A program made the translations under genes and the position numbers. A stretch of 38,517 bases of DNA, taken from positions 1 through 38,517 of the IMG/VR virus record IMGVR_UViG_2713897161_000001, one strand, 5' to 3'. Below, one piece after another: positions 2,997 through 14,539 of the stretch. The first letter of the stretch is position 1. Every line of letters begins with the position of its first letter. Source of the stretch: a virus. Lineage: Duplodnaviria; Heunggongvirae; Uroviricota; Caudoviricetes. The notes under the pieces are model-generated. The model did not search any database. It had not been told where the DNA came from and worked only from the letters and a program-made list of their open reading frames with translations.

Positions 2997-3467
2997 CTAA
3001 TAAAATACCCAATTTTCTGTTTCTTGGTTGTGTCCAAAGTTATATTCAATATCTGGTGTTGATGTATCAATATTTTTCATCCCATCAACAAGAGTTGATA
3101 CAACAGCCAAATCTTGTTTTATTCTCATTAAATGGTATTTCTTCCGGCGCAATAAACTTTCAATAGCAAGTTTCTTCGTTGGGAATGCAAAAGATCTTTC
3201 TGCATTTTTTGCTACTTTCTTAATTGCATATCTATTTCTCCTTTGTTTCCATTCCTGTAACCACTGATTTGGTGCTGGTTTAAAATTAACAATCCAATGC
3301 GCAGGAACCAACCATGCATAATGCTCTGTCTGATGAAAAGCTATATATTGAAGTGCGAATATTTTTATCCCATCTTCTTCAACTGTCGCCTGGAATCTCC
3401 AGAAAACAGGCATTCCATCATGTTCAGTTTCTGATTCAGGAAAAGGTACGCTCCATGATTTTGTCAT
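2997..3467 (-). CDS. Hypothetical accessory protein (156 aa) in AT-rich segment
   Basis: ORF within a visibly AT-rich stretch (about 2930-3340) between cIII-like gene and N; no recognisable family. Confidence 0.5.
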   Translation of the reverse strand: MTKSWSVPFPESETEHDGMPVFWRFQATVEEDGIKIFALQYIAFHQTEHYAWLVPAHWIVNFKPAPNQWLQEWKQRRNRYAIKKVAKNAERSFAFPTKKLAIESLLRRKKYHLMRIKQDLAVVSTLVDGMKNIDTSTPDIEYNFGHNQETENWVFY

Positions 3468-3529
3468 ATCTCACCTCAAATAAGTGGTTTGCTGCCAAAA
3501 CAATGAACCATCCGGAAATTCCAGATAGT

Positions 3530-3757
3530 TCATAATTCACTCTTCAATACTTCCAACTTACTAATCGCCGATAGATATCCGCGCTGATAGGGCATCATCA
3601 TTCCTTCGAGCTTGCCACTTCTTAACTCCTCCCTGAGCAATTGTATTGCTTGATCAATAACCTCTGCCTTAGCGTCCTTTATGGCTTGCTTGCGGGGCTT
3701 TGCTTTCTGCTTTGGCAGATTTCTCAAGCATGATGGAATGTATGTCTGATTCATCAC
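3530..3757 (-). CDS. Hypothetical protein (75 aa) immediately downstream of N
   Basis: ORF abutting N stop; basic, coiled-coil-like; no family recognised. Confidence 0.4.
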   Translation of the reverse strand: MMNQTYIPSCLRNLPKQKAKPRKQAIKDAKAEVIDQAIQLLREELRSGKLEGMMMPYQRGYLSAISKLEVLKSEL

Positions 3758-4141
3758 TTACCTCGCTGTCAGTTGTTTTGATTTCCGGTAGCCTGCCGCG
3801 TAAATGGCTACGTTTGGAAGACATACACCAGTTTCTGGTTGCTTATGTCCAAACTCATTCGCGTACACAATGGCCGCTCGCTCCAGATTGCGTCTGTATT
3901 CTTTCTGTTGCCAGATCACGTCCTGTGCCATGAACTTAATTGGCTTAGCGTCTTCTATGCGCTCAGGCGTTTCGTGAGTACCTTTAGCCTGAATCTGCGC
4001 TCTGCTTAGAGTAGGGCGGTGTAATACTTCTGAACTTATTGCTTCTTCGCGGGCCAGCACGCCGTTAGCTAATGCCTTTGCCTTTAAACGCTCACGACGA
4101 CGAGAACGTGAATTGCCTTTGAACTGAGTTCTGCGTGTCAT
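3758..4141 (-). CDS. N: N-type transcription antiterminator (P22 gene 24-like)
   Basis: Arginine-rich motif near N-terminus (RSRRRERLKAKALA) and C-terminal end ...YAAGYRKSKQLTAR resembling P22 N as recalled; canonical boxB hairpins lie upstream in both nutL and nutR positions. Confidence 0.75.
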   Translation of the reverse strand: MTRRTQFKGNSRSRRRERLKAKALANGVLAREEAISSEVLHRPTLSRAQIQAKGTHETPERIEDAKPIKFMAQDVIWQQKEYRRNLERAAIVYANEFGHKQPETGVCLPNVAIYAAGYRKSKQLTAR

Positions 4142-4321: not shown

Positions 4322-4399
4322 CGTAGATTCATATTCGAATCGTTGTATATTCACCGCCCTGGTGAGTAGTGCGTCCTGCTGATGGGTAAACTTTATCGG

Positions 4400-4450
4400 A
4401 ATGATAAATTAATGGCAATAGCAAAATGATAAATTCTTTTGATTTTCAAA
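4400..4450 (-). promoter_or_regulatory. OL/pL operator-promoter region (putative)
   Basis: Two TGATAAAT motifs (4402-4409, 4427-4434) and near-palindrome TTTTGATTTTCAAA (4437-4450), the same motifs that occur between cI and cro. Confidence 0.4.
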
Positions 4451-4607
4451 TATCGTATTGATTCTTATGGTGTTTTATTTTGTTGTAGGAATTCGACAGG
4501 ATAAATAAAGAGATTTGAGGGAGATCTGGATTGCGTGGTTTAGCAAGTTGTATCAATCAGTTTTTCAATAAATACAATTGGTTATGTGTTTTTAGGTGGG
4601 GGATCGT

Positions 4608-4637
4608 GAGGCAAAGAAAACCCGGCTCTTGGCCGGG
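4608..4637 (-). terminator. Intrinsic terminator after KilA-N gene (end of cI operon)
   Basis: Hairpin CCCGGCTCTTGGCCGGG at 4621-4637; on minus strand followed by TTTTCTTTGCC. Confidence 0.55.
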
Positions 4638-4645
4638 AATAACAT

Positions 4646-5407
4646 TTAGGAATCAAGGTCAGGTAGCATGATTTTCTCAATCAACGTCAATGCCCTTTGG
4701 TCTCGTTCAGCAAAATATTTAGGAGCGTACTGAGGCAGCCACACTTCGTTGAAGTGTTGTTTGAAATCTGCAAGATATTCGTTTGGGTATAGACGTACCG
4801 GGAATGTCCGGCCATCTGGGTACTCATGGTTATATGTTGGGAATGTCTTCGGCTCAACCCCCCGGTTGTCACGGAGCCATTGCGAGAAAACCCTACCCTC
4901 TGAAATATCAGGGACCATTTTTTCTGGCAGCGTATATCCGGCCTGTTCAAGTGGCGCAACCAAGTTAAACGTCAGTTCATTAAGCATAGAAAAGTGCGTA
5001 TGAGGAACTCTGCCTCGGTTTGTCATATACCGCTTAAGGTGGATAGGGAGTTCGGCAGGCGCTCTTTCACCTGACATCCACTCACGCACCCATCTCGATA
5101 CTTGCACTGCAAATTTTGGAGATAGCCACTGAGCTAAATTAATTGCGATGTCTGGATGAACCCAAGTCCCTTGATTCTCTGCTCTTCCGCCTTTAAATGA
5201 TTGAATTAACTCCGATATGGGAATCCCCATATCGCGTGATAATTCATCAAAAAAATCTTGTGTTGTTTTTAGTCGTGTATAGTCAGCAAGTAGCTTCCCC
5301 GCAGACTTGCACATCGCGGTGGCATTGATGTATCCGTCTTTGGTGCGAAGATGGATGACTTCTCCATCAACTTCTCTAGCGATTAATGCAAGTTGAAACT
5401 GTGTCAT
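4646..5407 (-). CDS. KilA-N domain protein with uncharacterised C-terminal domain
   Basis: 253 aa; N-terminal region (HLRTKDGYINATAMCKSAGK) recalled as KilA-N/APSES-type domain; directly downstream of and co-oriented with cI. Confidence 0.65.
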   Translation of the reverse strand: MTQFQLALIAREVDGEVIHLRTKDGYINATAMCKSAGKLLADYTRLKTTQDFFDELSRDMGIPISELIQSFKGGRAENQGTWVHPDIAINLAQWLSPKFAVQVSRWVREWMSGERAPAELPIHLKRYMTNRGRVPHTHFSMLNELTFNLVAPLEQAGYTLPEKMVPDISEGRVFSQWLRDNRGVEPKTFPTYNHEYPDGRTFPVRLYPNEYLADFKQHFNEVWLPQYAPKYFAERDQRALTLIEKIMLPDLDS

Positions 5408-5489
5408 AAATCATCCTATTACGTGAAAAATAAAACAATCACCCAAACGTCTCTTCAGGCCACTGGCTATCAGCTATGTGACGATGAAG

Positions 5490-6194
5490 TCACGAACTTT
5501 TCAGCCACTCCCTTGCCTCGATGTCATCCAGATGGCGAGATTGCTTCAGAATACCAGCCACATACTCCACCTTTGCTACTTGATGATAAGGCAACGTTAT
5601 TGGCCTATGGTCCTGGTTGATGCTTGTAAACTGGTATTCTCCGTCTCTGTCATAGCCAAGAACTTTGATCATGTTGTGTCCTTCAACGGTTCTGACAAAC
5701 ACCTCATCACCCGGGAATACTTTGGTGTTAGGCTCAATGAGTACATATTCTCCTGATTTTATTCTAGGCCACATGCTGTCTCCTTTCACACGAAGACCAA
5801 AGGCATCTGGATCATCGCTATAAATTTTGAGCCACCCATCGCGCTCTTCGGTCATCTCGATGGCACCATCAACACCAAGAATTGCCTCACCAACCACGCG
5901 CACTAACCCTTTTCTTACCTGACCGACAAAAGTTAAAGAATCTGAGCATGATGCAATTGGTGTTACATCATGTACCAAATCAAGCCACCCATTAGGTAAC
6001 CCAAGTGCGGCTTCAAATTTTCTTGCTAGTTTATCCCCTATGTTTCGAGTGCTTTTTTCACCGGAGACTTGCGTGAGTTGAGAAGGGCTAACCCCAAGCT
6101 TATCGGCAAAGCTTGCATTAGTGTTACCCGCGATTTTTTTATGCTCATCTAGCAAAAACGCCAGATTCGATTTGCGAATATCTTTGTTTTCCAT
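5490..6194 (-). CDS. cI: cI-type repressor (HTH DNA-binding domain plus LexA/S24-like autocleavage domain)
   Basis: 234 aa; N-terminal HTH-like region, C-terminal S24 peptidase-like segment (GDSMWP...EYVLIEP, NMIKVL); divergent from cro across an operator-rich intergenic region. Confidence 0.85.
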   Translation of the reverse strand: MENKDIRKSNLAFLLDEHKKIAGNTNASFADKLGVSPSQLTQVSGEKSTRNIGDKLARKFEAALGLPNGWLDLVHDVTPIASCSDSLTFVGQVRKGLVRVVGEAILGVDGAIEMTEERDGWLKIYSDDPDAFGLRVKGDSMWPRIKSGEYVLIEPNTKVFPGDEVFVRTVEGHNMIKVLGYDRDGEYQFTSINQDHRPITLPYHQVAKVEYVAGILKQSRHLDDIEAREWLKSS

Positions 6195-6222: not shown

Positions 6223-6296
6223 GGATAAATACGCAATATGATAAATTTACATTGCGTTTGATTTATCAAAATGGTAAAGTTATTCTGTATGATAAA
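6223..6296. promoter_or_regulatory. OR operators with divergent pRM/pR (putative)
   Basis: Repeated GGATAAAT/TGATAAAT/TGATAAAC motifs at 6223-6230, 6239-6246, 6289-6296 and palindrome TTTGATTTATCAAA at 6257-6270 in the cI-cro intergenic region. Confidence 0.5.
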
Positions 6297-10693: not shown

Positions 10694-10860
10694 TTGACCA
10701 AAATCGAAGTTACGAACAAGAAAGCGTCGAGCGAGCTTTAACGTGCGCTAACTGCGGTCAGAAGCTGCATGTGCTGGAAGTTAACGTGTGTGAGCACTGC
10801 TGCGCAGAACTGATGAGCGATCCGAATAGCTCAATGTACGAGGAAGAAGACGATGAATGA
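10690..10860 (+). CDS. ninF: NinF
   Basis: GTG start overlapping ninE stop; 56 aa Cys-rich peptide ([20 protein letters not shown]) recalled as lambda NinF. Confidence 0.7.
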
Positions 10861-11578
10861 GTTAATAAATGGCAATGCCATCAAAATGACAAGCATTGAA
10901 ATCGCTGAGTTGGTAGAAAGCCGCCATAGCAATGTAAAAGTATCCATAGATAGATTGGTGAAACGTGGCGTTATCAAGCCTCCTGCATTGCAGCACACTA
11001 ACATAATCAATGATTTAGGTGTTATTACCGGGAAGCGTGATTTCTACGTCTTCGAGGGCGAACAAGGAAAGCGAGACAGCATTATTGTCGTCGCCCAATT
11101 GTCGCCGGAATTCACCGCTCGTCTTGTTGACCGTTGGCGAGAGCTTGAAGAAACTGCGGTTAATATCCCCAAAACGCTACCAGAAGCGTTGCGCCTTGCT
11201 GCTGATCTTGCTGAGCAGAAAATGCAACTGGAAAACCAGCTCGCAATTGCCGCACCTAAAGTTGAGTTTGCCGATCGCGTTGGCGAGGCCAGCGGAATTT
11301 TGATTGGAAACTTTGCAAAGGTTGTTGGAATTGGTCCAAACAAACTGTTTGCGTGGATGCGCGATCACAAAATCCTTATTGCTTCAGGTTCCCGGCGCAA
11401 TGTGCCAATGCAGGAATATATGGATCGTGGCTATTTCGCAGTGAAAGAAACAGCGGTCAACACAAATCACGGAATACAGATATCGTTCACCACAAAAATC
11501 ACCGGGCGTGGTCAACAGTGGCTGACCAGAAAGCTGCTCGATAACGGAATGCTGAAAGTAACAGGGGAGGCTGCTTAA
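10853..11578 (+). CDS. Phage antirepressor-like protein (N-terminal regulatory domain plus KilA-C/Ant C-terminal domain)
   Basis: 241 aa; domain architecture recalled from Ant/KilAC proteins. Confidence 0.6.
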   Translation: MNELINGNAIKMTSIEIAELVESRHSNVKVSIDRLVKRGVIKPPALQHTNIINDLGVITGKRDFYVFEGEQGKRDSIIVVAQLSPEFTARLVDRWRELEETAVNIPKTLPEALRLAADLAEQKMQLENQLAIAAPKVEFADRVGEASGILIGNFAKVVGIGPNKLFAWMRDHKILIASGSRRNVPMQEYMDRGYFAVKETAVNTNHGIQISFTTKITGRGQQWLTRKLLDNGMLKVTGEAA

Positions 11579-14383: not shown

Positions 14384-14458
14384 GGGTCAGTCGTATAAAG
14401 GTCATTACGGAAGGCTGTTAACCTTCTTATCGTGGTTCGAGTCCACGCTGTCCCGCCA
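14384..14458 (+). tRNA. tRNA-Asn (anticodon GTT), phage-encoded
   Basis: Manual fold: acceptor GGGTCAG/CTGTCCC (one mismatch), anticodon stem GAAGG/CCTTC with loop CTGTTAA (anticodon at tRNA positions 34-36), T-arm CGTGG-TTCGAGT-CCACG, 3' GCCA. Confidence 0.6.
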
Positions 14459-14463
14459 AACAT

Positions 14464-14539
14464 GCTGGTTTAGCTCCAATGGTAGAGCGGTCGCCTTGTA
14501 AGCGAATGGGTAGCGGTTCAAGTCCGTTAACCAGCACCA
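14464..14539 (+). tRNA. tRNA-Thr (anticodon TGT), phage-encoded
   Basis: Manual fold: acceptor GCTGGTT/AACCAGC, D-arm GCTC-CAATGGTA-GAGC, anticodon loop CTTGTAA, T-arm AGCGG-TTCAAGT-CCGTT, 3' ACCA. Confidence 0.65.

Follow-up and report, generated by a model that had tools for sequence, protein, structure and literature searches.

A BstA-like gene with a KilA-N domain downstream of cI in a lambdoid phage, a candidate prophage abortive-infection gene

Gene layout and transcription signals

The window, which is the whole 38,517-nucleotide stretch of phage DNA analyzed here, carries a gene for a 253-aa protein directly downstream of a cI repressor gene. The features of this locus are collected in Table 1. 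As the sequence-only reading had stated, the gene (4646-5407) follows cI (5490-6194) on the same strand, here minus, after a gap of 82 nt (5408-5489). The repressor contained a Peptidase_S24 domain (E 3.8e-16) and a weak HTH_3 match in Pfam. Operator-like ATGATAAAT sites were located in two clusters, an OL cluster at 4401, 4426 and 4498 (4498 with one mismatch) and an OR cluster at 6238, 6261 and 6289. The intrinsic terminator that had been proposed ahead of OL/pL was recovered as a CCCGGCCAAGAGCCGGG stem-loop with a TTTTCTTT tail at 4637-4612. Its 6-bp stem is all GC and closes a 5-nt loop, it lies within the conserved cassette described below, and about 200 nt separate it from the OL/pL operators.

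No terminator-like site was found on the minus strand between cI and the BstA-like gene, and the 82-nt gap held no consensus match to a separate promoter. Since the gap has no promoter consensus and the native spacer is only 31 nt long, a promoter of the gene's own within the gap was rejected and co-transcription with cI is preferred. In lysogens, the downstream gene is presumably transcribed from pRM, the cI promoter.

Further features of the same phage were observed away from this locus. The nin region contained a 241-aa antirepressor-type gene (10853-11578, plus strand) that combines a Rha-like domain (weak, below the Pfam cutoff) with an ANT (KilAC) domain, and it represents a second modular protein of the Bro/KilA/Ant class in the window. 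Two plus-strand tRNA genes, tRNA-Asn (GTT) at 14384-14458 and tRNA-Thr (TGT) at 14464-14539, precede the lysis genes, an arrangement also seen in mEp506.

Table 1. Coordinates of genes, domains and sequence elements at the cI-downstream locus of the window.
Feature	Position	Strand	Details
N gene	3758-4141	minus	Pfam N_peptide; beyond the pL-like promoter
OL operators and pL-like promoter	4390-4434	minus	operators 4401-4409 and 4426-4434; pL-like promoter 4418-4390
Mobile cassette	4591-5468	minus	878 bp; cI remnant, spacer, gene, terminator
Intrinsic terminator of the cI-gene transcript, ahead of pL	4612-4637	minus	stem-loop CCCGGCCAAGAGCCGGG 4637-4621, then TTTTCTTT
KilA-N + BstA_C gene (BstA-like)	4646-5407	minus	ATG start, 253 aa; ORF list, PHROG 6287
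BstA_C domain (PF26567)	4688-5050	minus	residues ~120-240
KilA-N / APSES-fold DNA-binding-type domain	5072-5371	minus	residues 13-112; Pfam, PDB profile search, Foldseek
Intragenic palindrome CGATATGGG-gatt-CCCATATCG	5213-5234	gene strand	gene nt 174-195, codons R-D-M-G-I-P-I-S
Native spacer with AGGA ribosome-binding site	5408-5438	minus	31 nt; same in PhiR5_2 and ML35
AGGA Shine-Dalgarno of the BstA-like gene	5414-5417	minus	
Remnant of the lambda-type cI 3' end	5439-5468	minus	30 nt, codons SQWPEETFG + TGA; upstream cassette boundary
cI repressor, HTH + Peptidase_S24	5490-6194	minus	234 aa; S24/LexA-type

Domain composition of the encoded protein

The N-terminal half of the protein had been read as KilA-N, an assignment that held, and the C-terminal half as belonging to no recognizable family, which did not hold. 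Residues 13-112 matched the KilA-N domain (PF04383) in Pfam with an E of 8.2e-27 and 93.6 bits against a gathering cutoff of 23.8. When PDB sequences were searched with a profile of 61 homologs, yeast Mbp1 was the only match. An AF2 model of the 253-aa protein had a mean pLDDT of 89.6, and its N-domain, compared with the PDB using Foldseek, matched Mbp1, a PCG2-DNA complex and Bqt4 with probabilities of 0.99-1.0.

The domain search that had been suggested for the C-terminal half returned BstA_C (PF26567) by way of PHROG, PADLOC, BLASTP and hhalign, and not a regulator without a defence role. BstA was described by Owen et al. (2021, PMC8585504) as a prophage protein that acts by abortive infection. 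PHROG 6287, 'BstA abortive infection system, replication inhibitor', matched the full-length protein (E 1.8e-82). The same profile was matched by BstA of Salmonella prophage BTP1 (BstA-BTP1; st313-td) and by an Ec-type BstA, and it therefore spans both the window protein and BstA-BTP1. The PADLOC BstA model matched residues 120-237 (E 2.5e-20) over positions 149-271 of its 292 (42%), short of a full-length match, so standard defence finders may not call the gene. BLASTP against BstA-BTP1 aligned residues 133-251 at 29% identity (E 5e-15), and hhalign paired residues 124-237 with BTP1 residues 163-281 (probability 98.1%, E 1e-13). According to precomputed Pfam annotation, homologs of the window protein carry PF04383 together with PF26567, and homologs of BstA-BTP1 carry PF26567 alone, some under the UniRef name 'BstA-like C-terminal domain-containing protein'. 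The window protein had no match in NCBIfam. Fold relatives of BstA_C were also sought, with nothing below E 0.07 in BFVD, and Foldseek against the PDB with the full model matched the N-domain only.

BstA_C is presumed to be an effector or partner-binding module. Residues that are invariant in the alignments of both clades and paired by hhalign are P135, E144, D167, S169, G171, H194, P208 and F215, among which D167-x-S169-x-G171 forms a motif; F139, S140, Y196 and P197 are invariant or nearly so in both. Such conservation could reflect either an active site or an unchanging interaction surface.

Distribution and domain partners of the clade

Judged by its sequence, the window gene belongs to a separate KilA-N + BstA_C clade, apart from validated BstA. 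The best 120 of 2,748 matches were 56-87% identical, about 250 aa long, and included alpha-, beta- and gamma-proteobacteria. The BstA_C superfamily as a whole is small, with 416 cluster representatives (E up to 1e-3) among 1.84 billion. We found no experimental work on the KilA-N + BstA_C clade in the literature searched, and searches for BstA with KilA-N since 2022 and for PF26567 gave nothing relevant.

BstA_C was found behind several N-terminal domains, namely KilA-N, Bro-N, Rha (with a DUF559/REase-like domain) and ORF6N. A 1230-aa protein fused PriCT_2, DUF3987, KilA-N and BstA_C, although this is a single metagenomic sequence and a possible gene-calling artefact. In Limnobaculum and Rhizobium elements, which are non-lambdoid, the BstA-like gene adjoins primase or primase-helicase genes. 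Among 80 viral loci from IMG/VR, a repressor gene of at least four types was adjacent upstream on the same strand in 46; it was further upstream in three and none was detectable in 31. Variants of 86-87% identity were not next to a repressor and were found near hokD or in the nin region, and Shewanella copies were situated between host genes in a non-phage context.

A mobile cassette in the cI-downstream slot

The gene travels with its surroundings. The 878-bp cassette was 95.5-99.8% identical in 22 complete E. coli genomes, where it stands beside different repressor genes: a lambda-type cI in ML35 and PhiR5_2, an XRE-type repressor in H6 and another LexA-family repressor in DY612. In a Proteus phage, a protein of 80% identity is encoded downstream of that phage's own cI. 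PhiR5_2 encodes a 100% identical protein 31 nt after a lambda-type cI, in the place of lambda's rexAB. We take the PhiR5_2 cI to be near-identical to lambda cI. It ends in ...ASQWPEETFG, and homology among cassette hosts begins at about 5468. Because positions 5439-5468 of the window encode the exact C-terminus of the PhiR5_2 cI and the gene begins 31 nt further on, the 82-nt gap represents a recombination scar. The source of the cassette was a lambda-immunity phage, where it occupies the position of rexAB.

Several candidate elements of the cassette were set aside. Half of a 'conserved 61-nt leader', considered as a regulatory element, is the remnant of the lambda cI 3' end. The first 34 nt of the 78%-identity variants, considered as a special signal, reflect ordinary divergence that shortened the megablast alignment. 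Direct repeats at 4641-4651/4714-4724 (11 nt, one mismatch, straddling the stop codon) and 4800-4808/4839-4847 (9 nt, perfect, intragenic) are by estimate at about chance level in 940 nt. A decayed copy of the same cI remnant was seen between cI and bstA of BTP1 (extract ~2442-2474), and the conserved cI 3' end may be a recurrent crossover point for cargo exchange. The cassette copy in E. coli H6 and H5 (H6 extract 3061-3822) is annotated as two 113-aa ORFs, and the BstA-like gene is probably disrupted in these strains.

The survey of the cI-downstream slot that had been called for showed that prophages with the window's cI (WP_000428098.1, or DNA 98% identical) hold other cargo there, either toxin-antitoxin or hypothetical genes, in addition to the rexAB-like placement in PhiR5_2. 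Specifically, ECONIH5 has two hypothetical genes, strain 472 a decayed remnant, O103:H2 and O157 genomes a HigB-like toxin with an HTH gene and a hypothetical gene, and mEp506 HicA/HicB/HicC. The window's exact cI-gene junction was found in no complete E. coli genome.

A covarying palindrome within the KilA-N coding region

The one perfect inverted repeat of the cassette is a 22-bp palindrome with perfect 9+9 arms (5213-5234; extended region ~5198-5248), and it lies within the coding region of the KilA-N domain. Shuffling the codons of the gene gave a stem of at least 9 bp in only 3% of cases. Across 53 distinct gene sequences, the position of the palindrome was kept while its arms changed in step. 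The co-varying arm versions were CGATATGGGAATTCCCATATCG; CGAAACGGGAATTCCCGTTTCG; CCGATGCGGGAATTCCCGCATCGG; and GGTCCATGGGAATTCCCATGGACC, with arm types such as CGAAACGGG and CGATGCGGG. In 26 distinct segments, 81% of cells paired, compared with 33-50% when the partners were slid, and changes on both sides were observed at 9/10 pairs. The covariation score of 0.303 exceeded that of shuffles (0.111 ± 0.021) and was reached by 0/500 of them. A further control fixed the amino acids of each lineage and drew synonymous codons at random; it gave about 6/10 pairs compared with the observed 9-10 (P ~0.006-0.06 per lineage, with at least eight lineages that have different arms). In most lineages the Ile partner codon in the palindrome is ATA, which E. 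coli uses rarely. Between the window and the 77%-identity clade, DNA identity peaks at 93-97% exactly at the palindrome.

The palindrome is shared beyond the BstA_C clade. Five KilA-N genes without BstA_C, from Bacteroides LoVEphage, Planktothrix PaV-LD, two uncultured podoviruses and Moraxella Mcat21, carried a palindrome at the corresponding position that was perfect or nearly so, and the KilA-N gene of Synechococcus phage S-SRP02 had a weak one. It was absent from the KilA-N gene of a Nodularia phage, from the KilA-N-P63C gene of mEp506 and from four members of the BstA_C clade, and bstA of BTP1 and of the Ec type contained no palindrome of at least 8 bp. No further copies were present elsewhere in the window, where half-sites were marginally enriched (14 matches vs. 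7.7 expected). Together, the covariation, the synonymous-codon control and the presence across phyla support maintenance of the palindrome at the nucleic-acid level.

Which nucleic acid is involved was considered from the pairing itself. As RNA, the palindrome region folds with z = -4.65, and an mRNA hairpin is one candidate explanation. An outer RNA helix around the palindrome had 74% of cells paired, many of them as G-U, with double changes at only three pairs and weak covariation, and in Rfam no credible match turned up across 4400-5600, the palindrome included. Pairing between the arms is almost exclusively Watson-Crick and the centre is usually a self-complementary AATT, which together favour a DNA site. 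A quasi-palindrome maintained by template-switch mutation, with neither function nor selection, is another possible explanation.

In phage BTP1, a 63-bp DNA element termed aba, consisting of 29 bp upstream and the first 34 bp of bstA, lets the phage escape BstA; it has terminal CCCGCC direct repeats, requires a high copy number to act and is specific for its own variant of BstA (PMC8585504). We tentatively propose, as one possibility that still has the odds against it, that the palindrome (22-24 bp) is the recognition site of the encoded protein and the equivalent of aba in the BstA-like clade, that its arms set variant specificity, and that many phage KilA-N genes are built likewise. The palindrome would then be a concrete candidate for a self-immunity site. 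If it is the protein's own site, KilA-N genes would in general have a feature that the searched literature does not describe (searches on KilA-N palindromes gave nothing relevant), and, more broadly, a large class of them in phages would contain the binding site of their product within the stretch that codes for the DNA-binding domain.

Proposed function and alternative explanations

We read the gene as a BstA-like prophage abortive-infection gene expressed from the cI operon, with a probability of roughly two in three, on the basis of sequence relationships and analogy. That an exclusion or abortive-infection gene occupies the rexAB slot had been suggested before, and BstA_C homology and synteny now lend support to it. 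The idea is not new in kind, as the BstA family was published in 2021, and the window gene is a distant relative whose N-terminal head differs. In prophage BTP1, bstA lies after cI, in a slot that Owen et al. likened to that of rexAB, and lysogens express it at a high level. When another phage enters, BstA gathers on that phage's replicating DNA and stops its replication, and the infection is aborted (PMC8585504).

From this precedent we infer lysogen expression, defence activity, a replication target and a self-immunity element for the window gene. It would be a prophage accessory gene (moron) that lysogens transcribe together with cI, from the repressor promoter to the gene's own terminator. 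The KilA-N/APSES N-domain of its product would bind DNA, and BstA_C would act as the shared family module. If it behaves like BstA of BTP1, E. coli and Klebsiella, the protein would be inert in the lysogen. Upon superinfection, it would move to the replicating DNA of the incoming phage, block replication and abort the infection, and the lysogen population would thereby be protected. To escape its own protein when induced, the phage that carries the gene would require a matching DNA element acting in cis. The primase neighbours, the primase-helicase fusion and the exchangeable heads fit a role at origins or forks of replication, to which a replaceable DNA-targeting head would bring BstA_C. Such a role agrees with the published replication block.

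Several observations weigh against the BstA-like reading. Identity to validated BstA is 22-29% and confined to the C-domain, the N-domains are unalignable, BTP1-type aba repeats are absent, and 31/80 loci have no adjacent repressor. In addition, the C-domain has no fold relative that would hint at a biochemical activity.

An alternative, which appears unlikely, is that the product plays no part in defence and serves the lytic-lysogenic circuit of its own phage as a KilA-N-type transcription regulator or antirepressor. The N-domain does match PHROG 129, 'transcriptional regulator' (E 8e-24), annotations of KilA-N proteins as regulators or antirepressors are common, and BstA_C also occurs behind Bro-N, Rha and ORF6N, N-domains that are typical of antirepressor-like proteins. 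However, the C-domain is common to experimentally validated BstA defence proteins, and an antirepressor made from the cI operon in lysogens would oppose lysogeny. Phages of the same immunity also carry toxin-antitoxin cargo in place of the gene, and it is thus dispensable for the immunity circuit.

The neighbourhood of primase or primase-helicase genes in two non-lambdoid elements, the single primase-helicase-KilA-N-BstA_C fusion and a conserved cis-like palindrome within the gene, as is often found in replication initiator genes, could also indicate an accessory factor for the element's own replication (origin or primase-helicase loading, or copy control) instead of an anti-phage effector. 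This seems a little less probable again, because the lambdoid copies lie outside the O/P module, in the immunity operon, as replaceable cargo, and BstA proper inhibits phage replication and does not support it (PMC8585504). RexAB-like exclusion by membrane depolarisation, to which genomic position alone would point, is extremely improbable for a single gene encoding a protein of DNA-binding fold with no Rex-related family in Pfam, PHROG or PADLOC, and Owen et al. call Rex 'not mechanistically comparable to BstA' (PMC8585504).

BstA is among the few prophage defences with a described DNA-based self-immunity element, and the KilA-N + BstA_C clade may be under-counted in defence surveys, as the PADLOC BstA profile only partly covers its members.

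Comparison with known systems

Lambda RexA/RexB share with the window gene the slot between cI and tImm/OL. Lambda Rex is an exclusion system expressed in lysogens, and the same role is presumed for the window gene. The two differ in that lambda has two genes, for a sensor and a membrane channel, where the window has one, and they have no sequence or domain relationship.

KilA-N + P63C proteins, such as the 'KilA-N-P63C' protein of mEp506, and KilA-N/Rha + ANT proteins, such as the Rha + ANT product of 10853-11578, resemble the BstA-like protein in joining an N-terminal DNA-binding module to an exchangeable C-terminal module. KilA-N identity is 27%. The C-module of the BstA-like protein is BstA_C in place of P63C or ANT, and the mEp506 KilA-N-P63C gene does not have the palindrome. 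The KilA-N + BstA_C clade provides natural domain swaps, which could help to tell target recognition apart from effector function and to tie BstA_C to the replication machinery.

The Ec-type BstA (E. coli NCTC10963 / 2012C-4431, WP_000026554.1) is likewise a prophage gene product encoded after cI and contains BstA_C. Its similarity to the window protein is limited to the C-domain (22% identity), whereas it is 42% identical to BstA-BTP1 over the full length. The cI upstream of it is a 714-bp gene of the LexA family, with an accession adjacent to that of the ML35 lambda-type cI. In the locus of E. coli 2012C-4431, ATCCCT(A/G)C repeats lie 57 nt apart (extract 2934-2929 and 2877-2872), and this pair is a candidate position for the aba of BstA-Ec; a hexamer shared across the start codon is near chance, as about 23-29% of shuffles have one, and it is the matching spacing that stands out.

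The aba-type repeats that flank the start codon are CCCGCCA, 56 nt apart, in BTP1 and ATCCCT, 57 nt apart, in the Ec type. The corresponding signature (a 6/6 or 7/8 direct repeat at 45-70 nt spacing, flanking the ATG) was absent in the window and in nine relatives, and general repeat searches of 5300-5500 gave only short repeats at chance level. By this sequence signature, a BTP1-type aba around the start codon of the window gene was rejected, as the repeat pair is missing. An aba of another form, such as the intragenic palindrome, may be present.

BstA-BTP1 has 307 aa and the window protein 253 aa, and only the C-domain aligns between them (29% identity); neither BLASTP nor profile-profile comparison (hhalign) aligned the N-domains. 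BstA-BTP1 had no Pfam match in the local library, whereas the window protein has a canonical Pfam KilA-N domain. Owen et al. called the BTP1 N-domain 'KilA-N(-like)' on remote homology (PMC8585504). Both proteins share BstA_C, PHROG 6287 and a two-domain build with an N-terminal domain of DNA-binding type, and both loci have the same arrangement on one strand, namely cI, a short gap, the gene with its own terminator, and then N.
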